Positions 4,392-35,847 of a DNA stretch of 61,720 nt are shown here, piece after piece. The DNA lies in the NCBI GenBank assembly GCA_042584405.1, contig JBHOSR010000003.1:1-61720 (forward strand). The letters are read 5' to 3'. The DNA comes from Bacteroidota bacterium. Its GTDB lineage: Bacteria; Bacteroidota; Bacteroidia; Bacteroidales; UBA12077. Position 1 is the first letter of the stretch. The number at the start of each line of letters is the position of its first letter. The position numbers and the translations under genes are program-made. Under the pieces are notes generated by a model, which ran no database searches, was not told the origin of the DNA, and was given only the letters and a program-made list of their open reading frames with translations.

Positions 4392-4418
4392 AGTTATACA
4401 TTTAATAATCTAAAAATT

Positions 4419-5852: not shown

Positions 5853-5868
5853 GAAGAAAATTCTCTTT

Positions 5869-7185: not shown

Positions 7186-7282
7186 ATCTTCTAAACGAGC
7201 GAAGTAATATCATCCCAATTGCCATAGGAACATGTTGAAAATTTTCGTTTGCCGAAGGTATAAAGGAATGAACTCCCCAGAC

Positions 7283-7316
7283 AAAAAAGACTTCTAGAAA
7301 ACTAGAAGTCTTTTTT
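7283..7316. terminator. Bidirectional rho-independent terminator.
   Basis: AAAAAA-AGACTTCTAG-aaaa-CTAGAAGTCT-TTTTTT, a 10-bp perfect stem. Confidence 0.8.
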
Positions 7317-7338
7317 AATATAAATATTTATAAAACTG

Positions 7339-19906: not shown

Positions 19907-20048
19907 CGTTTAAGAATTTATATAAAAAGATTTGACCCCAATTTTTTATTTTTATTACACTTAAGACAAAAAAGTTTAAACAAAGTTTAACTTTAGTAAA
20001 TTTAAATAAATTTTTAACTTGTACATTATTTACAAAATACAAAATACA

Positions 20049-20531
20049 ATGAAACAATTACTTGCACTTTCATTATTAAGCTTTATTCTTTTTTCTTGTC
20101 AACAAAAAACAGAGATTACAACAGTAAACATTGAATCAGAAAAAGCTATTGTTGAAGAAACCATTAAAAACACTATTGCATGGGCAAAAGATAAAGACAC
20201 AAGCCTCCTTTACAGCATTATTGCTAATGATGAGAATTATTTAGAAGTACATCCTGAAAATACAGTGGTAAAAAGTATTACAGAATTTAAAAAAGCAGAA
20301 AAATTTTGGTTAGATCCACGATTTAAACATGTAAAATTCGAAACCTGGGATATGCATATTAATATTTCTCAAGATGGAACCGTAGCATGGTATTATTGTA
20401 TGTTAAATGATATAAATGATTGGGATGGACAATCCGTTAGTTGGGAAAATACCCGTTGGACAGGAGTTTTAGAAAAGCGTAACGGTAGTTGGAGAATGGT
20501 TCAAATGCATTTTTCATATCCCTTACAATAG
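20049..20531 (+). CDS. NTF2/SnoaL-like fold lipoprotein (DUF4440-like).
   Basis: Signal plus lipobox LFSC from the ATG at 20049. The WTGVLEKRNGSWRMVQMHFS C-terminus is typical of SnoaL-like domains. Confidence 0.5.
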   Translation: MKQLLALSLLSFILFSCQQKTEITTVNIESEKAIVEETIKNTIAWAKDKDTSLLYSIIANDENYLEVHPENTVVKSITEFKKAEKFWLDPRFKHVKFETWDMHINISQDGTVAWYYCMLNDINDWDGQSVSWENTRWTGVLEKRNGSWRMVQMHFSYPLQ

Positions 20532-20534
20532 AGA

Positions 20535-20565
20535 AGAAACTGTCGTCAACGACAGTTTCTATTTT
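20535..20565. terminator. Hairpin terminator between convergent genes.
   Basis: 11-bp perfect stem AGAAACTGTCG-tcaa-CGACAGTTTCT followed by ATTTT. Confidence 0.65.
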
Positions 20566-20600
20566 AAAAACGTCACATGAATAATTATAAAATTCAAATT

Positions 20601-21122
20601 TTACATTTCAACACCTAGTCTAGCCTGAACACCTTCGCTGAAATAGTGTTTAATTTCATTCATCTCTGTAACCAGATCTGCCATTTCTATTATCTTCTCA
20701 TGAGCATATCTTCCGGTAATGACAATCTCAACGTGTTTAGGTTTTTGTTTAATAATTTCAAGGACCTTAGCTATGTCTAGTAATTTATAATAAAGGGCAA
20801 TATTTAGTTCATCCATAATAACCAAATCATATTCACCTGATTTAATTATCTTTTCCATTTCATTAAAACCATTTTGCGCAGCAACAATATCTTTTTCTTC
20901 TGGTTCATTAACAATAAAACAATCCAAACCATATTGTTTAATTACGATCTCATCCAAATATTTTTCGATCGAATCCAGTTCACTATAATGTTTTCCTTTT
21001 ATAAATTGCCCTATAAAAATCTTTTTATCGGCTCCGTAAGCTCTGAGAGCCAAGCCAAGTGCAGCAGTAGTCTTCCCCTTTCCATTGCCTGTATAAACCT
21101 GAATAAATCCTTGATTCTTCAT
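20601..21122 (-). CDS. cobO: Cob(I)yrinic acid a,c-diamide / cob(I)alamin adenosyltransferase (CobO/BtuR type).
   Basis: IQVYTGNGKGKTTAALGLALRA P-loop and DELNIAL motif. ATG at 21122 preferred over the extended start. Confidence 0.85.
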   Translation of the reverse strand: MKNQGFIQVYTGNGKGKTTAALGLALRAYGADKKIFIGQFIKGKHYSELDSIEKYLDEIVIKQYGLDCFIVNEPEEKDIVAAQNGFNEMEKIIKSGEYDLVIMDELNIALYYKLLDIAKVLEIIKQKPKHVEIVITGRYAHEKIIEMADLVTEMNEIKHYFSEGVQARLGVEM

Positions 21123-21141
21123 TTTGTGAAATATGTAAAAA

Positions 21142-21591
21142 TTAATTATAGATGAACCGGATTTTCTCATCAGCTAAAGTTGGCTCGATTAATTCGTTCC
21201 ATTCATTAGTATTCCATGTTTTTAGCTTTGTATGTGTTTGATAATATTTTTCAGGAATTGGATGAGTACCTACCACTACATGCAAACCGTATTTTTCTTG
21301 TATAAACTTACGAAAATGATCAATATATGGACATGGGGGATAACCCACAATAAATCCTGTTGCAAGATGAATTACATTAACCCCATTTTTAATCATTTCT
21401 TCAGGAGTATATTCAATATTTCCCCCTGGACAACCACCGCAACTTGTGTAACCCACAATTTCTATTTCTTCATCTTTACTATAAATACTAAAAGCTCCTT
21501 CACGATTTTTTAAGGCTCTAAAACATTTACCTCCGGCACAATCACGGTATCTATCGCATATTATAATTCCTATTTTAGTTGTTTTTTTCAC
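21142..21591 (-). CDS. CGGC domain-containing metal-binding protein.
   Basis: IIICDRYRDCAGGKCF ... YTSCGGCPG pattern. Confidence 0.65.
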   Translation of the reverse strand: MKKTTKIGIIICDRYRDCAGGKCFRALKNREGAFSIYSKDEEIEIVGYTSCGGCPGGNIEYTPEEMIKNGVNVIHLATGFIVGYPPCPYIDHFRKFIQEKYGLHVVVGTHPIPEKYYQTHTKLKTWNTNEWNELIEPTLADEKIRFIYN

Positions 21592-22369
21592 GATTCTTTG
21601 ATTTTTGATATGAATCTATAATGGATTCTATTTCGCTCATTTTAAAACCATATTGTTTTCGTAAATGACCTAATTGATTCGAACCGGATACAGAAGAAGG
21701 AAGATTTAATTTTCTTTTTAAATAATCTTCCGGGATATTATACTCATTGGTTACTTCTGACAAAGTCATGTATCCTTTAACTTCTATTGAAGGATCAGTG
21801 TTATGATGCTCATGTTGGGCGTGTTCTTCAGGTCTGTTTTGTTCGTATTTTTTATCTTGTATTGTTTTTCGATCTGAATTTTCGTCTTGAAAAACTTCTT
21901 TTATCGCTGGTTGTTCCTCAAAGAGTTTTGTTTCCGACTCTGCAGGAACAGTTGTTTCTATTGAAGAGTAATACCTTTCTCTACCACTTAATGTCTCTTC
22001 TACATCAATTTGAAAAAGAAATGGAAAGCAAATCAGAAAAAGTGTAATTATAGTAAATGATAACGCACATGCAATTCGAACAGCTTTTCTTTTTATTATA
22101 TTTTTATATAAACAAATTATGACTTTCCAGTGCAAAATAATATGAAGTATAAGCAACACAACTAACGTAATTCCAAGAATAAAATGAATGGTCCCCCAAT
22201 CATGTCGATCAAACCCCCAAAAAGTCATATCAACATTTCTTCCAAACTTCACCCAGCGTTCAGTTCCAGGTAGTAGAACATATTTTATTAGCAGACCTAA
22301 TCCTGCTATGATGCCCATTAAAATGAACATAATAGCATCAATTACAAAATTCCATTTTGATTTATTCAT
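21575..22369 (-). CDS. DUF4405-like membrane protein (3-4 TM, conserved His residues) with a soluble C-terminal domain.
   Basis: Hydrophobic N-terminal half with HDWGTIHFILG...HIILHWK. No assigned function. Confidence 0.45.
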   Translation of the reverse strand: MNKSKWNFVIDAIMFILMGIIAGLGLLIKYVLLPGTERWVKFGRNVDMTFWGFDRHDWGTIHFILGITLVVLLILHIILHWKVIICLYKNIIKRKAVRIACALSFTIITLFLICFPFLFQIDVEETLSGRERYYSSIETTVPAESETKLFEEQPAIKEVFQDENSDRKTIQDKKYEQNRPEEHAQHEHHNTDPSIEVKGYMTLSEVTNEYNIPEDYLKRKLNLPSSVSGSNQLGHLRKQYGFKMSEIESIIDSYQKSKNREKNN

Positions 22370-22380
22370 GACTTGTTTTT

Positions 22381-23568
22381 TTAATTTGATATTTTATCTA
22401 AAGCAATTGCTAAATCATTAATTATATCTTCAACATTCTCTATTCCTACAGAATATCTAACCAATCCTTCAGTAATATTAGCTGCAAGTTTATCTTCTTT
22501 TGATACACCCGCATGTGTCATTGAAGCTGGGTGCTGTATTAAACTCTCAACTCCACCCAGTGATACTGCTAATTTTGCTAGATGAACATTATCCATAAGG
22601 ATTTTTCCAGCTTCAAAACCTCCTTTTAAGGCAAAACTTATCATACTTCCAAAACCTTGCATTTGCTCCTTAGCCAATTTGTGTTGCTGAAAAGATTTTA
22701 AACCCGGATATTTTACCCATTCCACTTTAGGATGACTTTCAAGGAATTCTGCAACTTTCATGGCACTTTCCTGGGCTTTATCAATTCTTAAGGATAAAGT
22801 TTTAACTCCTCTTATTACCAAATAAGCTTGGTGAGGATCCATGTTCCCTCCCATGTAAATCATTGTTTTACGAATAGTATTGTATAATTCATTATCTTTT
22901 GCAACTATTATACCGCCAACAATATCGGCATGACCATTAATAAATTTGGTTAAAGAATGTAAAACAACGTCAGCTCCTAAATCTAAAGGCTTTTGAAGAT
23001 ATGGACTGCAAAAGGTATTATCAACACAGACTAAAATATTATGTTTGTGTGCTATTTGAGAAGCTTTCTTAATATCTGTAAGCTGAATTGTTGGATTAGC
23101 TGGAGTTTCAAGGTAAAGCAATTTGGTATTAGGTTTAATAGCTTTTTCAATTTCATCAAGGTTTGAAGTATCGATATATGAATACTCTACTCCAAATTTT
23201 GAAAAATGACTTTCCATTACGCCTCTACTTGGACCATAAACAGCACTTGTACTTATCATATGGTCTCCCTGGCTTAATAGAGCCAAATAAACAGTTGTAA
23301 CAGCAGCCATACCAGAAGCTAATGCAATTCCTCTATACCCATTTTCTAATTCTGCAATTTTATTTTCAAGTACATTTATTGTTGGATTCCCAATTCTTGT
23401 ATAGATATAACCCTTTTCTTTACCGGCAAATAAATCAGCACCGTGTTGTGCATTTTTAAACGAAAAAGTTGATGTTTGATAAATCGGAGTTACTGCACTT
23501 CCGAATTCATCCTGATAATCACCTGCATGTACTAGTTTGGAGTTAAATCCCATGTTTTTTGTTTCCAT
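22381..23568 (-). CDS. PLP-dependent methionine gamma-lyase / Cys-Met metabolism family enzyme.
   Basis: PLP-Lys motif HSLTKFINGHAD. Family-typical TRIGNPT and VESLIQHPASMTH. Confidence 0.85.
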   Translation of the reverse strand: METKNMGFNSKLVHAGDYQDEFGSAVTPIYQTSTFSFKNAQHGADLFAGKEKGYIYTRIGNPTINVLENKIAELENGYRGIALASGMAAVTTVYLALLSQGDHMISTSAVYGPSRGVMESHFSKFGVEYSYIDTSNLDEIEKAIKPNTKLLYLETPANPTIQLTDIKKASQIAHKHNILVCVDNTFCSPYLQKPLDLGADVVLHSLTKFINGHADIVGGIIVAKDNELYNTIRKTMIYMGGNMDPHQAYLVIRGVKTLSLRIDKAQESAMKVAEFLESHPKVEWVKYPGLKSFQQHKLAKEQMQGFGSMISFALKGGFEAGKILMDNVHLAKLAVSLGGVESLIQHPASMTHAGVSKEDKLAANITEGLVRYSVGIENVEDIINDLAIALDKISN

Positions 23569-23610
23569 AATATTTTCTTGTTTTAATAAGGTTTATGTAT
23601 ATTAATATTT

Positions 23611-24387
23611 CTAAATATTAAGAACCATGCCTGATTTTAGTTGCTTTATTTTAAGCTCATCATAAAATGCGGCTAAAGCCGGCAATTCAGTACAATGTGA
23701 TGGATATATTTCAGCAATATCCTGAGATTTGAGATATTTGATAGTTTCTTTTGTTTGGAGATTATTATATTTCAAATGAAATCCTCCTATAACTGCCCTG
23801 ATTTCATTAATTCCAGTTATTTTTTTCGCATATTCAATCATATTACAAATACCGGAATGAGCACAACCTGAGATAATTACAATTTCATCATTCAATTTAA
23901 TTACCAAACCTGAATCATCGGTAATATAATCCTCTGTTTTATCACTTAATTCAAATGCAGTTGTTATTGCTTCAAAAGAATTTAAACGGGGAATTTCTCC
24001 TAAGAATATTATATTTTTTGAAATAGGATAAGGTTTTCGTGAGGGAATAATATCAAACCTGTTTGTTAACTCTTTAAAAGATAGTTCAAGTCCAATATTT
24101 TCATCATCATTTTTTCTGAAACGCTTTTGAAAAACATCAGGATGGCATATCAACTTCTTGTCGTTAATATACCTTAATCCGTTTCCATGATCCCAATGAC
24201 CATGGCTTAGAACAACAGCTTCAATTTTATCAATATCTATATTAAATCTTTGAGCATTTTTTAAAAAAACATTTGAATGGCCAGTGTCAAAAAGAATATT
24301 GCTATCTTCATTAATATGATAAGATAAGCCATGTTCTGCTAAAAACTTACCCGATGCAGTATTTTCTGTTAAAACCGTTAATTTCAT
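23611..24387 (-). CDS. MBL-fold metallo-hydrolase.
   Basis: HGHWDHGNG (HxHxDH) motif. Confidence 0.75.
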   Translation of the reverse strand: MKLTVLTENTASGKFLAEHGLSYHINEDSNILFDTGHSNVFLKNAQRFNIDIDKIEAVVLSHGHWDHGNGLRYINDKKLICHPDVFQKRFRKNDDENIGLELSFKELTNRFDIIPSRKPYPISKNIIFLGEIPRLNSFEAITTAFELSDKTEDYITDDSGLVIKLNDEIVIISGCAHSGICNMIEYAKKITGINEIRAVIGGFHLKYNNLQTKETIKYLKSQDIAEIYPSHCTELPALAAFYDELKIKQLKSGMVLNI

Positions 24388-24429
24388 TTTCTTAATTCCG
24401 TATTGTCCTCTTTGACTCTATTATAATTA

Positions 24430-24771
24430 TTATAAAAACTTTTTTAAACTACTGTTTTTGTAAGCATCAAATGCTTCTTTTACACTCATTTGTCCTGCAC
24501 CTATATAAATCTTTATTCCGGCCTTTTCTAAAACTGTAGCAGCATTTCCACCGGGTCCATTTCCGGTAATTAAAACTTCAGGACCCATCTCAAATAAATT
24601 CTGAGAAGTTTTTGGTCCGGCTCCATGAGCTTCATTTTCAATATCATGGTTATCAAATGAAGTAAACTCATCTTTCTCATCATCATAAACTAAAATAAAT
24701 TCAGTTCGTCCAAATCGCGGATCCATTTCCGAATTCCAATCTGTTCCTTTTGTTGTAAATGCTATTTTCAT
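24430..24771 (-). CDS. NifB/NifX-family (dinitrogenase FeMo-cofactor-binding fold) small protein.
   Basis: PRFGRTEFILVYD ... LITGNGPGGNA pattern, ~113 aa. Confidence 0.7.
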   Translation of the reverse strand: MKIAFTTKGTDWNSEMDPRFGRTEFILVYDDEKDEFTSFDNHDIENEAHGAGPKTSQNLFEMGPEVLITGNGPGGNAATVLEKAGIKIYIGAGQMSVKEAFDAYKNSSLKKFL

Positions 24772-24837
24772 TTCTATATAATTTTATGTTTCATTTTTCT
24801 AATTAATGTTATAAATTTTATCAATCTCATTGCATCT

Positions 24838-24856
24838 AAAAAAAAGCTGTCAGCTT
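24838..24856 (-). terminator. Weak candidate terminator/attenuator in the 186-nt gap after the second MinD-ferredoxin gene.
   Basis: On the minus strand, AAGCT-gac-AGCTT followed by 8 T. The stem is only 5 bp. Confidence 0.3.
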
Positions 24857-24957
24857 CATGCTACAAGTTTCAATCTGCCAACTGATTACTGCCTCTGTAT
24901 CCTTTATCTTGTATAATTTTTAATTTATAATTATTCATTAAAAATTCTCCTTTTCTT

Positions 24958-25839
24958 TTATATACTCCCAACTAATTCTTTAATTTTATGCCAGCTATTA
25001 ACAATCATTAATGTTAACTCTCCTGAACCATATTCAACAATCGTTTGTCCATTAGTCATAGCTTTTGTAAAATTTTCATCGTAAGGTAAACTGGAAATAT
25101 GTGCAATTGATTCATCATTCAGAAATTGAATAATATCCTGTGTTACTTTCGGATTTATATCATATTTATTAATAATACATCCAGCTTTCAAATTGAATTT
25201 TTTAACCAATTCATGTACTCTTTTTAAATCGTGCAATCCCGATAAAGATGGTTCTGTAACTAAAACAACAAAATCAGCTCCTGAAAGTGAGGAGACAACA
25301 GGGCAACCTATTCCAGGAGAACCATCAACAATGATATAGTTCATTTTATTTTCTTTGGCCAATTGTTTAGCCTCATTTTTAACTTTAGCAACTAATTTAC
25401 CAGAGTTTTCGGCTCCTATTCCCAGTTTTGCATGAACAAGTGTATTTCCGACTTTGGTTTTAGAAATATACCAGTCTCCAACATTTTGATTGAACATATT
25501 AATAGCTTCAACAGGACATACCCGTGCACAATATCCACAACCTTCACAATTCAAAGTTTTAATTGTATATAGATCATTTATTACAGAAATTGCGTCAAAT
25601 CGGCAAATATCAGCACACATCCCACAATTAGTACATTTATCAGAATCAATATTAGCAATTACACCACTGAAAAAATCTTCTGAATTTATTACCGTTGGTT
25701 TCATTAATAAATGCATATCAGCCGCATCAACATCACAGTCTGCAACAATAGCATCGTTACCAGATAAAACTGCAAATGATGCTGTTACAGATGTTTTGCC
25801 TGTTCCTCCCTTACCGGAAATAATTACAATCTCCTTCAT
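24958..25839 (-). CDS. MinD/ParA-superfamily P-loop ATPase with an inserted 2x[4Fe-4S] ferredoxin domain.
   Basis: GKGGTGKTS P-loop. CTNCGMCADIC and CEGCGYCARVCP motifs. Confidence 0.8.
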   Translation of the reverse strand: MKEIVIISGKGGTGKTSVTASFAVLSGNDAIVADCDVDAADMHLLMKPTVINSEDFFSGVIANIDSDKCTNCGMCADICRFDAISVINDLYTIKTLNCEGCGYCARVCPVEAINMFNQNVGDWYISKTKVGNTLVHAKLGIGAENSGKLVAKVKNEAKQLAKENKMNYIIVDGSPGIGCPVVSSLSGADFVVLVTEPSLSGLHDLKRVHELVKKFNLKAGCIINKYDINPKVTQDIIQFLNDESIAHISSLPYDENFTKAMTNGQTIVEYGSGELTLMIVNSWHKIKELVGSI

Positions 25840-25846
25840 CTCGGTA

Positions 25847-26701
25847 CTAATTATTTAAATCTAAAATGTAATTCTTAACATTTTGAAGTTCTTCTTTAAA
25901 CTCAGGTATTTCAGAATATATCAATTTCCCTTTTGAATAAAGCTCTGCTACTTTTCTGTTATTAGGTATTTTTGCCAGGATTGGAATATTATTACTCACA
26001 CAGTAATCAACAACATCATTATTCCCAATACCATATCGATTAATTACTACTCCAAAATCCTTATCCAATTTTTTCATAGTTTCAACTGCAAGTTTCAAAT
26101 CATGCAGACCAAAAGGAGTTGGTTCCGTGACAAGAATTACAAAATCTACTTCTTTTGTTGCTTCAATAACAGGACATGAAGTTCCAGGTGGTGCATCAAA
26201 TATTTTTACTATATGCTGATTAAAAGTTTTATCAATATAATCATTGGTTTGAGCTATCAATGGTACGGCTTGTTCTTGCCCAATATCCAAACGACTTTCA
26301 ATAAAAGAAATATTTCCTTTTGTGTATTGATTTAATGTACCCATTCTTTGTTTAATCATAGGTAAAGATGATACAGGACATAACTCAGAACAAGCAAAAC
26401 AGCTATGGCATAATTCCGGAAAAACCATTATTTGTGGACCTAATTGTATAACAGCATGGAAATTGCAAACTTTCTGACATTCGCCACATAAAGTACAAGT
26501 ATCTTCCTTCCACTCAGGAATCATTTTATATTTTATTTCTTCTTGAATTAATTCCCCCTTAATAAATAATCCGGAGTTAGGTTCTTCAACATCCAGGTCT
26601 GTTAAAACTACTTTTTCAGTTTCTGAAAAAAGGGCGGCTAAATTCGTTGACAAGGTTGTCTTGCCTGTTCCGCCCTTTCCACTAGCGATAGTAATCTTCA
26701 T
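25847..26701 (-). CDS. MinD/ParA-superfamily P-loop ATPase with an inserted 2x[4Fe-4S] ferredoxin domain (paralog).
   Basis: GKGGTGKTT P-loop. CTLCGECQKVC and CHSCFACSELCP motifs. Confidence 0.8.
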   Translation of the reverse strand: MKITIASGKGGTGKTTLSTNLAALFSETEKVVLTDLDVEEPNSGLFIKGELIQEEIKYKMIPEWKEDTCTLCGECQKVCNFHAVIQLGPQIMVFPELCHSCFACSELCPVSSLPMIKQRMGTLNQYTKGNISFIESRLDIGQEQAVPLIAQTNDYIDKTFNQHIVKIFDAPPGTSCPVIEATKEVDFVILVTEPTPFGLHDLKLAVETMKKLDKDFGVVINRYGIGNNDVVDYCVSNNIPILAKIPNNRKVAELYSKGKLIYSEIPEFKEELQNVKNYILDLNN

Positions 26702-26716
26702 TTGTAAACTAATAAC

Positions 26717-27112
26717 TTATCCTAAACTATTATTATCAAGAAATAATTGGATTGTTTTTTCCAATGTCCTTCTTGCCAAACAAACGCAATCTGTTTTTGT
26801 CAAGGGAACTCCTCCCAAATGTTCTATAATATCACCTTCAGTTATTACTTTTGCAAAAGATAATGTTTTGTTTTTGATCATTTCCATAAGTGCTGAACCT
26901 GCAGAAAAAGCTCCTGCGCATCCTATAGCTTCAAATTTTGCTTCTGTTATAATTTCAGAATCAATTTTTAAATAAATTTTCATTGTATCACCACAATGTC
27001 CAGTATACGACGAAGAAACACTTGGATTTTCAATGCTGCCAACATTTAATTTTTTTTTATAGTATTCAATTGCCTTATCTGAATAACCGGATTTTTTCAA
27101 TAATTCATTCAT
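26717..27112 (-). CDS. NifU/IscU N-terminal-like Fe-S scaffold protein.
   Basis: Three conserved Cys contexts: GHCGD, IGCAGA and DCVCLA. Confidence 0.7.
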   Translation of the reverse strand: MNELLKKSGYSDKAIEYYKKKLNVGSIENPSVSSSYTGHCGDTMKIYLKIDSEIITEAKFEAIGCAGAFSAGSALMEMIKNKTLSFAKVITEGDIIEHLGGVPLTKTDCVCLARRTLEKTIQLFLDNNSLG

Positions 27113-27175
27113 TTTATTTGAGTTTAATTATTGATTTATTCAAACATAATTAACAGCCACTCATCAAAACAATTT

Positions 27176-27514
27176 TTAATGATCACATAAATTCTGTCCT
27201 GTTTGAAGTTGATTGGTTAAATATTGCTCAACTAATTCAGAAGGAGAACCATCTTGAACACCCATATGGACTTCAATATTGTTCATTGCAAATAAATCCT
27301 GAGCTTTTTGCCCCATTCCTCCTGCAATAATTACATGAACTCCATGATCAGCCAAAAACTTTGGATATACTCCTGGTTGATGTACTGGTGGAGTTATGAA
27401 TTCTTCCTTTACAACTTTATGGTCTTCCACATCGACAATTGCAAATTTTTCACAATGTCCAAAATGTGCTGTTAATTGATTTCCTAATGTAGGTATCGCA
27501 AACTTCATTTTCAT
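27176..27514 (-). CDS. NifB/NifX-family small protein (second copy).
   Basis: HFGHCEKFAIVDV ... IIAGGMGQKA pattern. Confidence 0.7.
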   Translation of the reverse strand: MKMKFAIPTLGNQLTAHFGHCEKFAIVDVEDHKVVKEEFITPPVHQPGVYPKFLADHGVHVIIAGGMGQKAQDLFAMNNIEVHMGVQDGSPSELVEQYLTNQLQTGQNLCDH

Positions 27515-27541
27515 CTTTTCATAATTTTATTAATAATTTAT

Positions 27542-27763
27542 TTATTTCTTTAGTAATTCTTCTCTAATTAGAGTATTTCCGCAATTGGGGCACTTAAGAG
27601 TTGTACACTTTATGCCTTGTTGATGTGGAACTTTTTCACCACATTTTGCACAAATACAATATCCACCGGGGCCAAAGGCTCCACCTTTATTTTTACCTTT
27701 TCCTCCACCACGACCAAGTCCTCTTCCATCACCTTGATTATGTTTATTATCTGAATTTTTCAT
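27542..27763 (-). CDS. Small Gly/Arg/Lys-rich protein with a GGYC motif and a Cys-rich zinc-ribbon-like C-terminus.
   Basis: GRGLGRGGGKGKNKGG...GGYCICAKCG...CTTLKCPNCG. Confidence 0.5.
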   Translation of the reverse strand: MKNSDNKHNQGDGRGLGRGGGKGKNKGGAFGPGGYCICAKCGEKVPHQQGIKCTTLKCPNCGNTLIREELLKK

Positions 27764-27876
27764 GTTTTTTCATTTTTAGGATTTCTAAGAAAAGCCATTA
27801 GCATTAAACCCATATGGACCACATAAGTTTTAAAAACTAAAGCTTTAAGCTAACGGCTTTTCAGACAAATAACAAC

Positions 27877-28182
27877 CTAATGTAATTTTTCAAGTTCTTT
27901 TTCAAGAAATGATAATTGTTGTTTTAAAATTTCAATTTCATTTTCTATTACAGATTTTTGATCAGTAGCACTGATTTCTTGATTTTCAGAATGAATTTGA
28001 TTTCTTCCAAAACCATGCTGGCCTTTCCTTCTAACTTGACCACCTCTAAATCCTTTTCCTAAACCAAAACCAAATTTCGAATTGTTGTTGAATCCCGGAT
28101 TATCATTTCCTGCGCAATACCCCATGCGCCTTCCTGTCATTGGGCCTAATCCCCCAGGCCCTGTTTTATCTCCTCTTGGCAT
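27877..28182 (-). CDS. DUF5320-like small protein (Gly-rich N-terminus with a GYC motif, C-terminal coiled coil).
   Basis: MPRGDKTGPGGLGPMTGRRMGYCAG... then the heptad-like ENEIEILKQQLSFLEKELEKL. Confidence 0.55.
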   Translation of the reverse strand: MPRGDKTGPGGLGPMTGRRMGYCAGNDNPGFNNNSKFGFGLGKGFRGGQVRRKGQHGFGRNQIHSENQEISATDQKSVIENEIEILKQQLSFLEKELEKLH

Positions 28183-28205
28183 AACAACCTCCTTTTTTTA
28201 AATGA

Positions 28206-29054
28206 TTAATGTTTCGTTATTTTTACAATTTTAGTAGGTTCTAAATTTTTATTTCTATCATTTACTTTTATAATTAATTGATCTGCCAAATTTTTAAAAG
28301 CATCACCAATAACAGTACTTTCCATAACAGTTGGCATCCCTGAATCACCACCTTCTCTTATACTTTGTACTAAGGGGATTTGACCTAAAAGTGGCACATT
28401 ATACTCCTTAGATAACTTCTTACAGCCATCTTTCCCAAATATGAAGTATTTATTATCAGGTAATTCTTCAGGTGTAAACCAGGACATATTCTCAATTAAT
28501 CCAATTACAGGAACTTTAATATGCTCTCCCTGAAACATGCTAATTCCTTTAACAGCATCAGCTAAAGCAACATCCTGTGGAGTACTAACTATAACAGCGC
28601 CTGTTACTGAGAGTGTTTGGACTAAGGTTAGATGAATATCGCTTGTACCCGGCGGCAGGTCAAAAAACAAATAATCTAATTCACCCCACTCTGTATCACC
28701 AATAAGTTGTTTTAAGGCTTTCGATGCCATTGGCCCCCGCCATACTGTTGCATCTCCAGCATCAATAAACATACCTATTGAAAGTAACTTAACTCCATAT
28801 TTCTGAATTGGTATAATTCTGTTTTTAAGCCCAATTATTTTAAATTCAGGCCTTTCATTTTCTATATTAAACATTTTTGGTATTGATGGCCCAAATATGT
28901 CTGCATCAATTAATCCAACTTTTTGCCCCTTATTTGCCAGGGCAACTGCCAGGTTTGTAGCTATAGTTGATTTCCCAACACCTCCTTTCCCTGAAGCTAT
29001 GACTACAATATTTTTTATTCCAGTCTGCTCAATTGTATCTTTCGTATTTTCCAT
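28206..29054 (-). CDS. mrp: Mrp/NBP35 (ApbC) family Fe-S cluster carrier ATPase.
   Basis: SGKGGVGKST deviant Walker A. DLPPGTSD. ENMSWF. Confidence 0.85.
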   Translation of the reverse strand: MENTKDTIEQTGIKNIVVIASGKGGVGKSTIATNLAVALANKGQKVGLIDADIFGPSIPKMFNIENERPEFKIIGLKNRIIPIQKYGVKLLSIGMFIDAGDATVWRGPMASKALKQLIGDTEWGELDYLFFDLPPGTSDIHLTLVQTLSVTGAVIVSTPQDVALADAVKGISMFQGEHIKVPVIGLIENMSWFTPEELPDNKYFIFGKDGCKKLSKEYNVPLLGQIPLVQSIREGGDSGMPTVMESTVIGDAFKNLADQLIIKVNDRNKNLEPTKIVKITKH

Positions 29055-29058
29055 AATC

Positions 29059-29484
29059 TTACTGTTGAAATGCTTTTACTTTTTTTAGTTGTTTAATAAA
29101 TATCTCCGGAGCCATCATAGGTTTGCGTGTTTCCGAGTCAACAAAAGCCAGCACAACATCGGCTCTGGTCACAAGCTTTTTATTCTGATTTAAAACTTCA
29201 TAATAAAATTTTAACCTGGTACGCGGAATTTCTTTTAAAATGGTCATAATAGTTAATACATCATCATAATAAACCGGTGATAAAAACTTTGTATTTATTG
29301 AAATTACAGGTAAAATAATTCCAGAATCCTCCAGATCTTTGTAATTTAAATCCAAACTTCGCAATAATTCCATTCTGCCTTCTTCAAAGTACAAAGGATA
29401 ATTTGCATGATGAGCATACCCCATCCTGTCTGTTTCTCCATAACGAATTCTTGTTTTTGTTTCATGGCTATACATAATCTCCAC
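29059..29484 (-). CDS. YbgC/4HBT-family acyl-CoA thioesterase.
   Basis: RIRYGETDRMGYAHHANY hot-dog thioesterase motif. Confidence 0.75.
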   Translation of the reverse strand: MEIMYSHETKTRIRYGETDRMGYAHHANYPLYFEEGRMELLRSLDLNYKDLEDSGIILPVISINTKFLSPVYYDDVLTIMTILKEIPRTRLKFYYEVLNQNKKLVTRADVVLAFVDSETRKPMMAPEIFIKQLKKVKAFQQ

Positions 29485-29932
29485 CCCTTTTTCGCTTTTG
29501 GTTCATACAACATTTACCATGTCCAAATCCACCTGCGAGATTTATAAGATTCTTAGAATGACATTCAGGACATTCAGTAAACGATTCTCCAAAATTAGTA
29601 TTAAACATATGTCCACAATCATGACAGCGAATAATATTATTTCGAAAATGTATATTTCCTCCTTCTATGGTAAGAAGTTTACCTTGAATAATAAAATCAG
29701 CAACTTTTTTTCTTGCTTTTTCAATTAAACGAGAAAAAGTAGGACGAGAAATCTCCATCTCTTCTGCTGCATCTTCTTGCGAAAACCCTTCGTAATCCGC
29801 AAGTCGTAAAGCTTCATACTCATCAATAGAAAGTTGTATCTGATCTAGTAACCTGCCAGCAACACCAATCGGTTTAAATTCTGAAAAGAGCGGTGGTTTA
29901 TGTACAATTCTTTCTTTTTCTGGTCGAGACAT
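29468..29932 (-). CDS. DUF134 (UPF0251) putative DNA-binding protein with a C-terminal zinc ribbon.
   Basis: KPPLFSEFKPIGV..., a sigma-70 region-4-like HTH (EYEALRLADYEGFSQEDAAEEMEISRPTFSRL), and CHDCGH...CPECH. Confidence 0.7.
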   Translation of the reverse strand: MSRPEKERIVHKPPLFSEFKPIGVAGRLLDQIQLSIDEYEALRLADYEGFSQEDAAEEMEISRPTFSRLIEKARKKVADFIIQGKLLTIEGGNIHFRNNIIRCHDCGHMFNTNFGESFTECPECHSKNLINLAGGFGHGKCCMNQKRKRGGDYV

Positions 29933-29966
29933 AGTATTTTAACTTTAATATTACAATACAAAAGTA

Positions 29967-29982
29967 ATGAACATATGCTCAT
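29967..29982. promoter_or_regulatory. Near-perfect palindrome ATGAaCATATGcTCAT 35 nt upstream of the DUF134 start. Candidate operator.
   Basis: Read directly. 14 of 16 positions are self-complementary. Confidence 0.25.
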
Positions 29983-30357
29983 AATGCAAATATTTTTATC
30001 TTTTTTTGATTAAAAACATGAAGAAAAGAATTAGTAATTAAACTAATAATCTACATTTAACTTGTTTATTATCCTTTTGAGTAAAATACCTTCAAAAAGC
30101 AGTAGAAAACTTCAAACATAATTGGTATTTGAAATCTATTCTATAGATATCATTAATAAAAGTTCATTTTCAAATTAAGGAAAGTCTTAATAGTTTATAA
30201 TAAATAGAACTCTAAGGTAAAGGGATATTTACCAAACTTACTAATTGAATCTAATTTTTCCTTATCAATAATTTTGATATGATGTTTTTTTAAAATAGAT
30301 CTGATTTTTGTTATTTGTATAAAATTGATTTACTTGCTTTATGGTAAAAAAACAGAA

Positions 30358-31008
30358 ATGCTTAAAAAGTATTTTAACATTAAAGATAATTGCAGAAAAG
30401 GGCTCATAAAACATCTTTCAAAAGCGCTTTCAATAATTCCGGTAATAGAAAATCCATTAATGCTAGATGTTGGATGTGGTTCCGGAGTGCCTACATTGGC
30501 TTTAACTGAAATTTATGATGGTAATATTATTGCCGTTGATATTGATGCTAAATCTATTAATAGGTTGACAGAGAAAATGGAAGAATTAAGTTTATCTAAC
30601 CGAATTTCAATTTTCAACTGTTCTTTGCATGATCTGAAATTCGAAGAAAAACAATTTGATATTATTTTGGCAGAAGGATTTCTTAATAATGTAGGTTTTA
30701 AGAAAGGTTTTTTGTTATTAATAAAATTATTAAAAAGGAACAGGTTCTTTATAATTCATGATGAGTTTCGAAATTATAATAAGAAAATTGAAATCATTGA
30801 AAGTAATAACTGTAAGGTATTAGATTCGTTTAGTTTGGACGAACAAGTATGGTGGGACGATTATTATAAATGTCTTGAAAAAGAAATATCATCTCTGAAG
30901 AATAAAGATTTACTGAAATTATTTAAGATCGACTTGCATGAAATCAAATCATTTAAGCAAGATTCATCTCAATTCAATTCAATGTATTATGTAGTAGAGA
31001 AAAAATAA
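30358..31008 (+). CDS. Class I SAM-dependent methyltransferase.
   Basis: Motif I LDVGCGSGVPTLAL. ATG at 30358 preferred over the TTG at 30325. Confidence 0.7.
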   Translation: MLKKYFNIKDNCRKGLIKHLSKALSIIPVIENPLMLDVGCGSGVPTLALTEIYDGNIIAVDIDAKSINRLTEKMEELSLSNRISIFNCSLHDLKFEEKQFDIILAEGFLNNVGFKKGFLLLIKLLKRNRFFIIHDEFRNYNKKIEIIESNNCKVLDSFSLDEQVWWDDYYKCLEKEISSLKNKDLLKLFKIDLHEIKSFKQDSSQFNSMYYVVEKK

Positions 31009-31062: not shown

Positions 31063-31911
31063 TTAATTAAATACTTTTTTATACAATGCTCCAAACAATA
31101 AAAACACTGCTAACATTATTATGATCAAAGGAGCAACAGGCATATCTATATTCCAAGACAAATATAACCCCACTGCTGAAACGATTATGCCAATTACTGA
31201 ACCAATAATAATTCTAGTTTTCCAACTTTGACTAAATAAAGCCGAAAATGATGCAGGTAAAATCAAAAATGCAAATACTGTTAATATTCCGCTAATATTA
31301 ACTGCCTCAATAATTACCACACCAAAAGTTAGATAAAACAAGAAATCCCAAAATATAGATGCTTTCATTTTGCAATCCTTATTATGGTAATTATCGGATA
31401 GTTGAGTAAATTTTTTCCTCAATGTAAAATGAATTATTCCTACTAAAGCCACAACAATGGCTAATTTTATTACTTGAGCCCACGACACCCAAAGTATCGA
31501 TCCTATTAACATGTCATGTATATGTACATCACCACCAGCACCTTTATCTAATATTATTACTGCGGCTGTTGTTGCAAAAGCATAAGAAATACCTATAATT
31601 GCCTCTAAAGGAATACCAAGTTTTCTGTTTTTTAAAAATGAGAAAACCAGTGCTGAAAAAATTATAAATCCTAAAGCCAGTAAATATGCCAGCATCGAAT
31701 CTTCAGAATGATCATGGCTATGTGCATGCCCTTCATGCAATGCATGATGCACTACAGCAGCAACAGCTGTACCAAAAGCAGCTATTTGAGCGAGTGCTAT
31801 ATCAATGAAAATGATCTCACGTTTTAAGACATGTATCCCAAAATATACATTTATTAATATCAAAAGTATACATGCCACTAAAGGAGCTAACATAAATTCT
31901 AATATCGTCAT
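31063..31911 (-). CDS. ABC-3 family metal (Zn/Mn/Fe) ABC transporter permease with a His-rich loop.
   Basis: 8-9 TM ZnuB/TroD-like pattern. HHALHEGHAHSHDHSEDS loop. Confidence 0.8.
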   Translation of the reverse strand: MTILEFMLAPLVACILLILINVYFGIHVLKREIIFIDIALAQIAAFGTAVAAVVHHALHEGHAHSHDHSEDSMLAYLLALGFIIFSALVFSFLKNRKLGIPLEAIIGISYAFATTAAVIILDKGAGGDVHIHDMLIGSILWVSWAQVIKLAIVVALVGIIHFTLRKKFTQLSDNYHNKDCKMKASIFWDFLFYLTFGVVIIEAVNISGILTVFAFLILPASFSALFSQSWKTRIIIGSVIGIIVSAVGLYLSWNIDMPVAPLIIIMLAVFLLFGALYKKVFN

Positions 31912-31934
31912 ATCAAATAATTTTAAATGTTTAA

Positions 31935-32774
31935 CTATTTAGCCAAGATTTTATTTGCAAATATTTTTTGAAAAGCCTTAACAAATGCAGCTATAAACAC
32001 AAAAGTTCCTAATAAACATACAATCGCCGGTCCATTGGAAACATTATATTCATACGAAATATAAATTCCGATAATAGAACCTAATATTCCAATAACCCAG
32101 CTCCATATAAATCTTTGTTTCCAATCGGTTGTAAACAATCTTACTATAGATGCAGGTGCTATTAGTAGAATAAAAACTAAGAATATACCCTGAATAAATA
32201 CTGCTTTTACAATAACAAATCCAAAGCTTATATAAAACAGTAGTTCAAGCATTCTCTTGTCATCCGCGCCTTTTTTATCTCTGATATTTTCTGAGATTTC
32301 TATAAACTTTTTAGAAAATAAAATATGTATTAATCCTACAATTCCAATTACTAGCAGAGTGTATAAAACTTGTTTCCATGTTACCCATAAAATATTTCCT
32401 GTAATTGTTTTTGTTATATAATTAGATCCTCCGGATATTCTTTCGGCAAGCAATAAAGCTAAACCTAAGGCAACACAATAAAATATTCCAATTAATGCTT
32501 CTTGCGAAATTTGCATTTTACGTGTTTTTGTAAGTGCAAAAAATGATATCACAATAATTGTAAATGCATATGAAATAACCTGCACAGATGCTGACTCTTC
32601 AGGAAAACCAAGCAATAAACCAGTCATTGTTCCAAGCGCAGCAATTTGGGCAATTGCAATATCAATAAAAATAATTCCGCGTGTAAGGATATGATTCCCG
32701 AAATAACTCAGTATCCCTGCAAGTATAACGCAAGCAGCAATTGGTGGTGCTAGAAAAATTAAATTATCTATCAT
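31935..32774 (-). CDS. ABC-3 family metal ABC transporter permease (second permease).
   Basis: ZnuB/TroC-like TM pattern. IFIDIAIAQIAALG motif shared with the neighbouring gene. Confidence 0.8.
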   Translation of the reverse strand: MIDNLIFLAPPIAACVILAGILSYFGNHILTRGIIFIDIAIAQIAALGTMTGLLLGFPEESASVQVISYAFTIIVISFFALTKTRKMQISQEALIGIFYCVALGLALLLAERISGGSNYITKTITGNILWVTWKQVLYTLLVIGIVGLIHILFSKKFIEISENIRDKKGADDKRMLELLFYISFGFVIVKAVFIQGIFLVFILLIAPASIVRLFTTDWKQRFIWSWVIGILGSIIGIYISYEYNVSNGPAIVCLLGTFVFIAAFVKAFQKIFANKILAK

Positions 32775-32781
32775 AATTTTA

Positions 32782-33807
32782 TTATTTTATATTCTGCAAT
32801 ACTTGCTCAATCCAATAATCCATGAGTTGAAAATTATCATCAACACCCTCTACACTTTTACAGAAAAGTGGGAGATAAAGAGCTTTTATGCCTGTTTTAG
32901 ATTCAATCATTTGTGGTGATTTTTTCTCGAAATAACTTGCTACAAGCATTAATTTAATATCCTGTTCTTTAATTAAGTTAGTCATGTATTGAACATGTTT
33001 TGCAGAAGGTGGAATACCAGGTTTCGGTTCTATAAAACCAATAATATTTAGTCCGAAAGCGTCGGCAAAGTATGCCCAATTTTTATGATAAGCTATTATA
33101 TCTTTATTCCTGAAAGGTAGAGCTACTTTTAGCCAACCTCCTAAAAGATCAATCAACTTTTGTTCTTCGTATTCACTTTCCAAAAACTCAAACAGCGTAT
33201 GATTTAGGAGCATTTCAGTTAATGTTTCACCACCGAAAATTTCAACCAACTTTTCTCCAAACATGGCATTATCCACCTTTTTAATAAAATTATCTCTATT
33301 TTTTTCGTAAAAAGCAGTATTAGCAGGATCAACCTTTTTTAAGCCAATTGTAATATTTTTTGCAATAACTTTCCAGTTAACCGGGCTGGTTGTAATATGC
33401 GGATTCCCCATTAAGTGCACATCACCTTCCGTACGATCTCCTTTTTCAACTTTTTGTAAGATTTTCGCTCCATCAGAAACACCTACAAATCCTATAGCTC
33501 CATCAATAATTTTTTTGTTATGTGCTTTATCTAATAAAGTAGTTGACCATCCTTCTAGATCCATCCCTGTAGTTACCCACATATCTGCTTTATTAAGTAG
33601 CATTGCATAACTTGGTTTAGGAGCTACAAAGTGAGGATCTTGGTTTCCTGATGCTATATATTCAACATCGGCTTTGTCTTTAGCAATTTGTTCAACAATC
33701 GTTGCATAATCTGAAAACGAACAAATAACTTTCACTTTACCATCACTTGCAAAAGAAATATTTGCAAAAATTAATAAAGCAACTAGTAATGATTTAATTT
33801 TTTTCAT
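32782..33807 (-). CDS. TroA/ZnuA-family metal-binding ABC substrate-binding protein.
   Basis: Signal peptide from the ATG at 33807. QDPHFV, GNPHITTSP and YHKNWAYF motifs. Confidence 0.8.
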   Translation of the reverse strand: MKKIKSLLVALLIFANISFASDGKVKVICSFSDYATIVEQIAKDKADVEYIASGNQDPHFVAPKPSYAMLLNKADMWVTTGMDLEGWSTTLLDKAHNKKIIDGAIGFVGVSDGAKILQKVEKGDRTEGDVHLMGNPHITTSPVNWKVIAKNITIGLKKVDPANTAFYEKNRDNFIKKVDNAMFGEKLVEIFGGETLTEMLLNHTLFEFLESEYEEQKLIDLLGGWLKVALPFRNKDIIAYHKNWAYFADAFGLNIIGFIEPKPGIPPSAKHVQYMTNLIKEQDIKLMLVASYFEKKSPQMIESKTGIKALYLPLFCKSVEGVDDNFQLMDYWIEQVLQNIK

Positions 33808-33832
33808 GTGTCTATTTTTAAATTTTTTACAA

Positions 33833-35227: not shown

Positions 35228-35605
35228 TTAGAAATTTGAAGGAGGTCCTCGATAATTTTGGAGTAAATAATAGTCGGATTTATAAATTCTTTCCTGAAGT
35301 ACTAAATTATTCCTTTCAGTAAGAATCTGAAATAATAGAAGTAATATAAACAATCCAACTAAAACTGGTAAAATTGTATTTGAAATTATATCATATAAAA
35401 CAAATTCAGATTTGCTATGCTCATGTGATGCAAAAGGATATGATGTATTATTATCTGTAGTTTTATTAAAAGGGTGAGCATGTGATATTACAAAACCGGT
35501 TGTTGATTGATGTAAATGACGATAGTAAACAGAATTAAAAAATAACCAGCTTATGGCAGGGAGTAAAATTAAAACAACTAATTTTTTATAAAAACTGTTT
35601 TTCAT
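35228..35605 (-). CDS. Small membrane protein with a His-rich loop (HLHQS..SHAHPF..SHEHSKSE).
   Basis: ORF track trimmed to the ATG at 35605. Two hydrophobic segments. No family recognised. Confidence 0.4.
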   Translation of the reverse strand: MKNSFYKKLVVLILLPAISWLFFNSVYYRHLHQSTTGFVISHAHPFNKTTDNNTSYPFASHEHSKSEFVLYDIISNTILPVLVGLFILLLLFQILTERNNLVLQERIYKSDYYLLQNYRGPPSNF

Positions 35606-35847
35606 TTTATAGGTTAATACAAGGCATTGCAAATATATAAATTCTTACTTAAAACAAGACTCATTTAGACTCTACAATATTATTAATATTAAATTTAGAA
35701 TAAGTTTAAACTATTTTAAATCAATTCTTTTTATGATCATTATTTTAATTTAAAACTATTATTTTTGTTTCGTTAATTAGTTAAACGAATCGTAATTAAT
35801 TCGGTCTTATGCACATTGAACAAATAACATAAATAAATCTTTAAACT

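Follow-up and report, generated by a model that had tools for sequence, protein, structure and literature searches.

A DUF134-headed gene array of a Bacteroidales genome as a version of the orp cluster, with a possible role in anaerobic iron-sulfur storage and trafficking

The orp genes of Desulfovibrio and their counterparts in the Bacteroidales window

In Desulfovibrio vulgaris Hildenborough, the genes of the orange protein complex (orp) are arranged as orp3-orp4-orp5 and orp7-orp8-orp9 (DVU2103-2105 and DVU2107-2109) (PMC6345978, PMC8359166), in two divergent operons that depend on sigma54 and OrpR (PMC6345978, PMC8359166, PMC4641369). Orp3 and Orp4 are MinD-like proteins with two [4Fe-4S] motifs each, and Orp5, Orp8, and Orp9 are also part of the complex (PMC6345978, PMC8359166, PMC4641369). 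Orp8 is a homologue of the orange protein (ORP), which holds a Mo-Cu-S cluster non-covalently, of composition [S2MoS2CuS2MoS2] in D. gigas (PMC6345978). Orp9 is MrpORP, in which an Mrp/NBP35 P-loop domain is fused to a Di-Nase (PF02579) domain, and Orp5 is likewise counted as a Di-Nase protein. Orp3, Orp4, and Orp8 co-purify, and MrpORP transfers iron-sulfur (Fe-S) clusters to them (PMC6345978), the expression of the orp genes being off at raised redox potential (PMC8359166). Here, we analysed an array of co-directional genes from a Bacteroidota bacterium (Bacteroidales; UBA12077), contained in a stretch of 61,720 nt (assembly GCA_042584405.1, contig JBHOSR010000003.1, forward strand, positions 1-61,720; the window hereafter). 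As judged by homology and synteny, this array is the Bacteroidales version of the orp cluster. The window had been described before in a first-pass annotation, produced by a model from the letters and the list of open reading frames (ORFs), without database searches; here, the ORF list was followed by profile searches with Pfam and NCBIfam. That this orp-type cluster is controlled by its DUF134 protein and serves Fe-S storage and trafficking is, as a combined statement, held with moderate confidence, the identity as an orp cluster being much firmer and the mechanism, considered alone, weaker and deduced.

Ten co-directional genes were found on the minus strand between positions 24430 and 29932 (coordinates below refer to this strand unless indicated), with gaps, from the DUF134 gene to that of the second NifX-fold protein (NifX2), of -17, 4, 23, 113, 27, 63, 15, 7, and 186 nt. 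The co-directional array and the families named for it in the first-pass annotation were borne out by these searches, but 11 genes had been counted, and no plausible ORF exists in the 186-nt gap. Neither is position 24430 the edge of the array, as the co-directional run extends five genes further, to position 20601. In databases, the array is annotated piecemeal in hundreds of species, under names such as "ATP-binding protein", "NifB/NifX family", or "DUF134".

An exact-sequence look-up of the window protein gave no match, and a protein database search returned close relatives only. The Desulfovibrio counterparts were reached through the sequence of D. gigas ORP (2wfb), which led to a 74% identical homologue in Desulfovibrio sp. 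X2 and to its locus. This locus showed the order sigma54 activator, two Gly/Arg-rich proteins, ORP, two MinD-ferredoxin ATPases (MinD-Fd), and a PF02579 protein (NifX126). In BLAST comparisons, MinD-Fd1 of the window was 41% identical to the first MinD-Fd of X2 (4e-79) and MinD-Fd2 was 45% identical to the second (1e-88), with cross-pair values of 29% and 27%, respectively. In addition, NifX2 was 36.5% identical to the X2 ORP homologue and NifX1 35% identical to NifX126. All these pairs were one-to-one and reciprocal-best, which makes the core of the array orthologous to the described system, with the MinD-Fd pair corresponding to Orp3/Orp4 and NifX2 to Orp8. Thus, the claim that such neighbourhoods have no experimentally assigned history does not stand, as the core genes are orthologues of studied Desulfovibrio orp genes, although the physiological role proposed for them there is hypothetical. 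The array core belongs to a described system, of which it is a distinct variant, and is not categorically new.

Related loci were collected with a MinD-Fd1 scan over one genome per GTDB species, which returned at least 568 relatives, and the best 80 loci (64-82% identity) were analysed by calling their ORFs and matching them to 15 proteins of the window; many of their contigs are truncated. These 80 loci belong to Bacteroidales, Cloacimonadota, Neomarinimicrobiota, Calditrichota, Aminicenantes, Ignavibacteria-like, Chlorobiota, and spirochaete metagenome-assembled genomes (MAGs), the closest relatives of the array being Bacteroidales MAGs. The T9SS sorting domains of the window and the type of its promoter are likewise in keeping with a Bacteroidota genome. 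A seven-gene module with the fixed order DUF134, DUF5320, ZnR (a small Gly-rich Cys protein), NifX1, MinD-Fd1, MinD-Fd2, and NifX2 was kept across phyla at 60-90% protein identity, with its members detected in 56, 52, 56, 50, 80, 78, and 72 of the 80 loci, respectively. In contrast, the thioesterase, Mrp, and NifU genes stressed in the first-pass annotation are not core, as they were present in one, eight, and six loci only. Since the same order recurs in the 80 related loci, the arrangement is far beyond chance.

MinD-Fd1 (25847-26701; Orp3/Orp4 type, COG1149) and its paralogue MinD-Fd2 (24958-25839) combine CbiA and Fer4 domains with two CxxCxxCxxxC motifs each, located in a 2x[4Fe-4S] ferredoxin domain of around 60 residues, an insertion that follows the first beta-alpha unit. 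Both proteins retain a deviant Walker A motif, GKGGTGKT, of the kind typically seen in ATP-sandwich dimers, all eight ferredoxin Cys, and an invariant Cys in the switch-II segment, PPGxxCP. For MinD-Fd1, this Walker A motif, the eight ferredoxin Cys, C176, and C234 were invariant in 82 sequences. An AlphaFold monomer model of MinD-Fd2 (pLDDT 89, pTM 0.80) was compared with solved structures by Foldseek, the nearest folds being MinD, FleN/FlhG, and then NifH/BchL, with E-values from 1e-12 to 1e-8, TM-scores of 0.6-0.73 (normalised by target length), and identities of 13-20%; the best matches were the MinD structures 1hyq and 1ion (E around 1e-12). No solved structure was found for the MinD-Fd subfamily itself, and its members scored far below cut-off against the MinD equivalog models of NCBIfam. 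Loci L044, L047, L065, L078, and L080 have, downstream of NifX2, yet another MinD-Fd-like paralogue, a third and more distant one that shares 31-43% identity with MinD-Fd2 and is often encoded beside a radical S-adenosylmethionine (SAM) gene.

The two NifX-fold proteins of the module belong to different types. NifX1 (27176-27514; 112 aa; PF02579, 6e-21) is a His/Cys-motif protein that matched positions 264-365 of the MrpORP model NF041136 (1.6e-36; 126 bits against a cut-off of 450), and its residues H17, H45, and C110 were invariant, with H20, C21, and H112 around 90% conserved. It keeps the HFGHC...CDH motif, whose residues were proposed as cluster ligands of MrpORP by Pardoux et al. (PMC6345978). 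NifX2 (24430-24771; 113 aa; PF02579, 1e-13) is an acidic protein of the ORP/MTH1175/TM1290 type, devoid of Cys and of a C-terminal tail, and its matches in the PDB were TM1290 (1rdu, 1e-14), MTH1175 (1eo1, 1.2e-10), and the D. gigas orange protein (2wfb, 1.3e-8). MTH1175 has been placed in the IssA clade (PMC5524996), and by its closeness to this protein NifX2 would be of the IssA-clade type. The best PDB relatives of NifX1 were PH0822 and TM1816; both proteins were consequently assigned to the PH0822/TM1816 (NifX1) and ORP/MTH1175 (NifX2) subgroups, and not to those of NifX or NafY. PF02579 is present in 65% of anaerobes and in 7.6% of aerobes (PMC13386939). In the distant locus L083 (positions 6900-8144), a cation-diffusion-facilitator (CDF) transporter with a C-terminal PF02579 domain is encoded inside a DUF134-headed array, a fusion which hints that NifX-fold domains are able to sit at a metal-transport step.

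Two further core members are small cationic proteins. The DUF5320 protein (27877-28182; PF17253, 2e-25) has a cationic Gly-rich N-terminal half with one invariant Cys and an acidic C-terminal half, the first 62 residues showing a pI of 11.6, 29% Gly, and six aromatic residues. ZnR (27542-27763; 73 aa) was identified as an ORF with no Pfam or NCBIfam family above cut-off; its N-terminal 35 residues have a pI of 10.3 and 37% Gly, and they are followed by a Cys module, CxCxxC-x5-H-x5-C-x4-CxxC, with seven invariant ligands. The chemical character of both N-terminal segments is like that of the tail of IssA, which has a pI of 10.7 and was proposed to bind thioferrate (PMC5524996), and both small proteins encoded in the orp locus of Desulfovibrio sp. 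X2 share it. A HMMER search of 1.84 billion representative proteins found the ZnR module in 995 representative clusters, where it was fused to PF02579 (five examples, e.g., P0290), DUF134, ferredoxin, a CDF cation-efflux transporter, a PDZ protein, and rhodanese, the latter with three repeats and a PF02579 domain. One locus with such a fusion, L083, has the order DUF134::ZnR, NifX, CDF::NifX, HD protein, MinD-Fd, and MinD-Fd. The fusions give ZnR a functional link with the NifX fold and the regulator, and also with the handling of metals and sulfur. The ZnR module was also observed as two to five tandem copies in large proteins with PDZ, rhodanese, and PF02579 domains (P0244, P0250, P0258).

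The DUF134 protein and the promoter region of the array

The gene at the head of the array, which is also the first array gene in most related loci, encodes a DUF134/UPF0251 protein (29468-29932; PF02001, 4e-24, 85 bits against a cut-off of 27) built of a sigma-70 region-4-like helix-turn-helix, a C-terminal four-Cys ribbon, and a GHGxCC tail. Among 44 orthologues, C103, C106, C121, and C124 were invariant, and H95, H138, C141, and C142 were around 91% conserved. The ribbon Cys and the conserved H...GHGxCC tail could sense a metal or a cluster. No solved structure of DUF134 was found, nor any functional study of it in the literature searched, where the same was true of COG1149 outside the ORP work.

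Upstream of the DUF134 start codon (ATG at 29932), positions 29990-29959 can be read as a promoter with an embedded operator. It consists of a -33-like element, TTTG (29990-29987), a 16-bp palindrome, ATGAGCATATGTTCAT (29982-29967), which fills the promoter spacer, and a -7 element, TACTTTTG (29966-29959). The whole, TTTG-N20-TACTTTTG, corresponds to the -33/-7 promoter form of Bacteroidota. A sigma-70 promoter scan was uninformative (54 sites vs 55.5 expected), no Sigma54_activat protein was detected by Pfam in the window, and no sigma54 -24/-12 match was found in 29933-30324, in a search that was overall at chance level. Neither a riboswitch nor any other RNA family was detected in the window by Rfam.

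Alignment of the DNA upstream of DUF134 genes revealed that this palindrome is conserved across phyla as TG[A/C]ACATATGT[G/T]CA, in every case preceded by a -35/-33-like TTG, followed by a -10/-7-like element, and located around 40-50 nt before the start codon. With one mismatch allowed, 72 copies were found in 1.07 Mb of related loci, in contrast to two in shuffled sequence, and almost all of them were located at an array head. It was present upstream of 41 of the 44 DUF134 genes of this type, with two more at two mismatches, and in arrays with DUF134 in a later position, the palindrome preceded DUF5320 or ZnR and was again located at the array head. Two related loci showed tandem copies. In the window, the scan match at 29968-29981 was the only good one.

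From its position and co-occurrence with the gene, the palindrome is the probable operator of DUF134, and most simply a repressor site, since RNA polymerase would be kept from the promoter by a dimer sitting on it. The DUF134 protein would probably be an autoregulated repressor and a sensor. The control of the array by DUF134 proposed in the first-pass annotation is therefore plausible, in light of the conserved palindrome in the promoter spacer, to which DUF134 would bind.

Two palindrome copies were observed away from array heads, in L051 (position 13157) and L077 (position 498), one of them upstream of a CoA-disulfide-reductase-like gene and the other before a conserved gene with no annotation (cluster c21); given these copies, the DUF134 regulon may include a few further promoters. 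In addition, a near-copy of the operator palindrome is located inside the DUF134 gene itself (29602-29615), where the coding strand reads TGGACATATGTT[C/T]A and specifies residues C-G-H-M-F within the Cys ribbon. Near-copies were likewise found inside the DUF134 genes of L004, L047, L055, L058, L064, L071, and L072, and they could be either a codon-level coincidence or an auxiliary operator.

Inserted, downstream, and other genes of the window

Three genes of the array lie outside the conserved module. The first encodes a YbgC/4HBT acyl-CoA thioesterase (29059-29484; PF13279, 6e-17; 87 bits with TIGR00051, above cut-off). It is followed by the gene of an Mrp/ApbC-type P-loop ATPase of 282 aa (28206-29054; PF10609, 4e-91), which scored 300 bits with the ApbC model and 257 bits with the MrpORP model NF041136 (cut-off 450), both below cut-off. 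This Mrp has a deviant Walker A motif, SGKGGVGKST, at residues 22-31, and lacks a DUF59 N-terminal domain. It had been presented as an Mrp/NBP35 Fe-S carrier, but the CxxC cluster ligands are absent, the protein reading ENMSWFTPEELPDNKYFIFG / IENMSWFTPEELPDNKYFIFGKDGC where ApbC has CxxC. It is 58% identical to a DUF59-Mrp of 375 aa from L074 (Bacteroidales), which has no CxxC either. A CPxC motif was present in the Mrp-like genes of L008, L015, L016, L040, L066, and L071, and a CPxC Nbp35-like Mrp directly precedes MinD-Fd1 in a few Cloacimonadota and Neomarinimicrobiota loci. At the position that it occupies in the window, Mrp was absent from the closest relatives, L001-L004, in which DUF134 is followed directly by DUF5320; the thioesterase and Mrp genes are thus a lineage-specific insertion, one observed in the window alone. 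The idea that Mrp and NifX1 are the halves of a recently split MrpORP was considered and rejected, because Mrp is nearer to ApbC, has no CxxC, resembles the housekeeping Mrp of Bacteroidales, and is missing in the closest relatives.

The third inserted gene, an occasional accessory, encodes an IscU/NifU-N-like scaffold (26717-27112; PF01592, 1.3e-26), which is a divergent member, as it scores below all the equivalog cut-offs of NCBIfam. Instead of the three Cys reported before, it has four, at positions 40 (GHCGD), 65 (GCAG), and 109/111, corresponding to the three IscU positions plus one. Of the six loci with such a gene, four (L009, L012, L017, L022) have it in the same slot.

Downstream of NifX2, the five additional co-directional genes follow with gaps of 42, 42, 11, -17, and -29 nt. 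They encode a metallo-beta-lactamase (MBL)-fold hydrolase (23611-24387; PF00753), with homologues downstream of the core in 16 of the 80 loci; a methionine-gamma-lyase-like pyridoxal phosphate (PLP) enzyme (22381-23568; PF01053, 5e-155; 505 bits against a TIGR01328 cut-off of 550), present in eight loci and perhaps supplying sulfide or thiol; a DUF4405 membrane protein (21575-22369; PF14358; six loci); a CGGC-domain protein (21142-21591; PF08821, 2e-30; 22 loci, 56-84% identity), the most frequent of the five; and, as the last co-directional gene, a CobA/CobO corrinoid adenosyltransferase (20601-21170; TIGR00708, 182 bits against a cut-off of 168; six loci). An intrinsic-terminator-like hairpin with an 11-bp stem (20535-20560), the only strong minus-strand terminator in 20000-30600, is probably the end of the transcription unit, and co-transcription of 15 genes is predicted.

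These five tail genes are a subset of a variable shell that recurs downstream of NifX2 in related loci, where CGGC proteins (22 loci), a third PF02579 protein (27), radical SAM (22), ARMT1/DUF89 (20), MBL (16), and CoA-disulfide-reductase-like flavoproteins (15) were found. Other recurrent shell genes encode Cupin_7, glyoxalase, ArsP_2, SAM methyltransferases, DUF4405, CobA, the PLP enzyme, free-standing DUF59, DsrE-like proteins, and DUF364. The flavour of this shell, with DUF59, DsrE-like, CoA-disulfide-reductase-like, radical SAM, CGGC, IscU, and Mrp proteins, is that of Fe-S and sulfur.

Regarding the rest of the window, a cluster on the plus strand (2138-7185) encodes B12-binding, homocysteine-S-methyltransferase-like, Met_synt_B12 activation-domain, and MttB-family proteins together with an amino-acid permease. 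This is probably a quaternary-amine demethylation system, and it may be here, and not in the orp module, that CobA (20601-21170) has its role. Upstream of the array, and parted from it by a plus-strand methyltransferase gene (30325-31008), the region 31063-35110 encodes a ZnuA-type metal-binding protein and two ABC-3 permeases, with no ABC ATPase seen. Elsewhere, the genes of this region do not recur beside the array, and no Pfam family was found for the ORFs of 425 aa (33833-35110) and 134 aa (35228-35632). Finally, a large protein sorted by the type IX secretion system, with DUF333, papain-family peptidase C1, PKD, fn3, and two GEVED domains, is encoded at 43946-47086 and is unrelated to the array.

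Proposed function, alternatives, and comparison with known systems

In the mechanism that we propose for the array, a DUF134 dimer would bind the 16-bp palindrome between the -33 and -7 elements and repress the whole array, with its conserved Cys/His tail sensing a metal, a cluster, or the redox state. The two MinD-Fd proteins would form an ATP-dependent sandwich heterodimer, as suggested by their deviant Walker A motif and by the fact that the Desulfovibrio proteins Orp3 and Orp4 co-purify, and their Fe-S clusters would be loaded by general or Mrp-type carriers. The NifX-fold proteins would hold labile anionic metal-sulfide species non-covalently, and precedents of such cargo in PF02579 proteins are the thioferrate of IssA (PMC5524996), and the Mo-Cu-S cluster of ORP and the [3Fe-4S] cluster of the MrpORP Di-Nase domain (PMC6345978). 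Like the tail of IssA, the cationic Gly-rich segments would keep such species stable, and the ATPase pair would couple ATP hydrolysis and low-potential electrons to their loading, mobilisation, or handing over. The net role would be the anaerobic storage and trafficking of Fe-S (metal-sulfide) species, independent of nitrogenase, alongside which the IscU-like, Mrp-like, and sulfur-releasing PLP genes appear to have been recruited in this genome. In a more novel version, the array would be a multi-component bacterial counterpart of archaeal IssA, in which the NifX proteins and cationic Gly-rich/Cys tail proteins acting in trans nucleate a thioferrate-like or polymeric metal-sulfide store, the MinD-Fd heterodimer loads or mobilises it with ATP and low-potential electrons, and DUF134 proteins, a family uncharacterised so far, act as metal- or cluster-sensing repressors on a phylum-spanning 16-bp operator; we regard this version as improbable.

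Several observations weigh against our proposal. The distant DUF134-headed array L083 has no palindrome, for which reason the palindrome is specific to this DUF134 subfamily, and some arrays that bear the palindrome lack a cis-encoded DUF134. Moreover, its core, GAAC-N4-GTTC, resembles the LexA boxes of Gram-positive bacteria. The 186-nt gap before NifX2 (24772-24957) contains a short, weak hairpin with a T8 run behind it (minus strand, AAGCTGACAGCTTTTTTTT), which may attenuate or partly terminate transcription; the corresponding gaps of related loci measure between -52 and 263 nt (median 50). As the Mrp of the window has no CxxC, a transfer of clusters from Mrp to MinD-Fd like that of Desulfovibrio is not simply assumable. 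Furthermore, the published hypothesis for the role of the ORP complex is cell division, possibly in an indirect way (PMC8359166). Finally, naming "Fe-S" as the cargo is a choice among options, given the Mo-Cu-S of ORP, the thioferrate of IssA, and the [3Fe-4S] of MrpORP.

Thiometallate handling is an alternative, in which the array would bind, buffer, or detoxify thiomolybdate, thiotungstate, and copper in sulfidic habitats, or feed Mo/W cofactor pathways, with NifX2 holding a Mo-Cu-S species. Besides the homology of NifX2 to the D. gigas orange protein, the recurrence of an ArsP_2-type putative heavy-metal exporter and of DUF364 ("heavy-metal chelation"), the CDF-NifX fusions, and a recurrent radical SAM neighbour weakly similar to tungsten-cofactor maturase and MoaA models are consistent with it. 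However, these radical SAM similarities are far below the cut-offs, neither a Mo/W transporter nor a molybdopterin gene (Pfam) nor a molybdenum-cofactor riboswitch (Rfam) was detected in the window, the IssA and MrpORP Di-Nase proteins of the same fold bind iron-sulfur species only, and the accessory IscU and Mrp genes point to Fe-S. We therefore consider thiometallate handling improbable.

We judge it similarly improbable that the MinD-like pair is an anaerobe-specific device for spatial positioning or the regulation of division, its clusters being redox sensors only. MinD, FleN, and FlhG are indeed the nearest solved folds, and in D. vulgaris, the loss of OrpR causes morphological defects and the orp genes are annotated as "cell division" (PMC8359166, PMC4641369), with MrpORP localised to one pole (PMC6345978). 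However, neither minC nor minE nor any other divisome gene was found in the window or recurring in the 80 neighbourhoods, the conserved partners of the ATPases are metal-sulfur-binding proteins, and in the Desulfovibrio work, the role in division is presented as a hypothesis by its own authors (PMC8359166).

That these proteins are accessory maturation factors of a nitrogenase or a similar enzyme (nif, nfl, cfb), whose genes would lie in another part of the genome, is very improbable. The PF02579 fold of NifX, NafY, and the C-terminal domain of NifB binds precursors of the iron-molybdenum cofactor in diazotrophs, the MinD-Fd fold is related to those of NifH and BchL, and the genome beyond the 61.7-kb window is unseen. 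However, a Pfam scan of all 51 window ORFs with 110 aa or more found no nifHDK, nifEN, nifB, nflHD, or cfbCD, in line with the first-pass annotation, and no nitrogenase-like gene recurs within 10 kb on either side of the 80 related loci. NifX1 and NifX2 belong to other subgroups than NifX and NafY, PF02579 is found in far more anaerobes than fix nitrogen, and the Desulfovibrio orthologues work without any link to nitrogenase. The notion of a metal-sulfur protein system independent of nitrogenase is in this way upheld. In contrast, the proposal that a complex or heterometal cluster is built for a client enzyme is not supported, and no client enzyme conserved beside the array recurs in more than one third of the 80 related loci. 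That the genes are only neighbours and form no functional unit is scarcely credible, because, even if the thioesterase, Mrp, CobA, and PLP enzyme have plausible housekeeping roles and internal promoters could be present in the 113- and 186-nt gaps, synteny already contradicts this for the core, whose seven-gene order is kept across phyla, whose members are linked by domain fusions, and whose array head is marked by a shared operator.

Proteins with PF02579 and of the COG1149 type are among the strongest genomic markers of anaerobes, and the array bears on the way in which strict anaerobes store and traffic iron-sulfur species. By placing a common array of the FCB group together with the ORP complex of Desulfovibrio, two bodies of data are joined. 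The operator and the domain fusions provide testable handles, namely a DNA target for DUF134, candidate interaction partners, and candidate cargo-binding segments. The operator and the ZnR fusions, which to our knowledge have not been reported before within the literature searched, make the role of ORP-type systems somewhat more testable, a result that a specialist would find useful rather than surprising. Should the proposed mechanism be true, a widespread route of Fe-S storage and delivery would operate in anoxic, sulfidic habitats in parallel to ISC and SUF.

Compared with the orp system of Desulfovibrio, the array of the window has in common the paralogous pair of MinD ATPases with 2x[4Fe-4S], in the same order and with 41-45% identity, the combination of an ORP-type PF02579 protein with a His/Cys-motif (Di-Nase) one, the adjoining Gly/Arg-rich small proteins, and the distribution restricted to anaerobes. 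In contrast, its regulator is a DUF134 protein with a palindrome in a housekeeping-type promoter, with no sigma54, OrpR, or integration host factor, and its genes all run in one direction in a single array, where D. vulgaris has two divergent operons. The two NifX types have exchanged places, and DUF5320 and ZnR are conserved members of the module. The MrpORP fusion is also absent from the window, where Mrp and NifX1 are separate genes with two genes between them, the Di-Nase domain being free-standing as NifX1 and Mrp being of a CxxC-less Bacteroidota type outside the conserved module; in the Desulfovibrio sp. X2 locus, no MrpORP was found within 8 kb on either side.

With IssA of Pyrococcus furiosus (PF2025, PMC5524996), the array shares the PF02579/IPR003731 globular domain and cationic segments rich in Gly and aromatic residues, probably disordered and with pI values of 10-11.6. 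However, these segments are found on separate small Cys-bearing proteins and not in a C-terminal tail, the array has dedicated ATPases, and thioferrate binding is in its case predicted only. The likeness to NifX, NafY, and the C-terminal domain of NifB is in the PF02579 fold and the non-covalent binding of complex metal-sulfur clusters; unlike them, the proteins of the window have no linkage to nifB, nifEN, or nifHDK and no fused radical SAM domain, and their PDB relatives place them in other subgroups. Regarding Mrp/NBP35/ApbC and Nbp35-Cfd1, the array shows the same SIMIBI P-loop with a deviant Walker A motif, a paralogue pair that is probably heterodimeric, and an Mrp homologue, but MinD-Fd has a full ferredoxin insert instead of a bridging CxxC, and the Mrp of the window has no CxxC. 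Finally, MinD-Fd appears, from its structural model, to have the core fold of MinD/FleN/FlhG and NifH/BchL, from which it differs in its low identity (13-20%), in its 2x[4Fe-4S] insertion of around 60 residues, and in having neither MinC/MinE nor nitrogenase partners.

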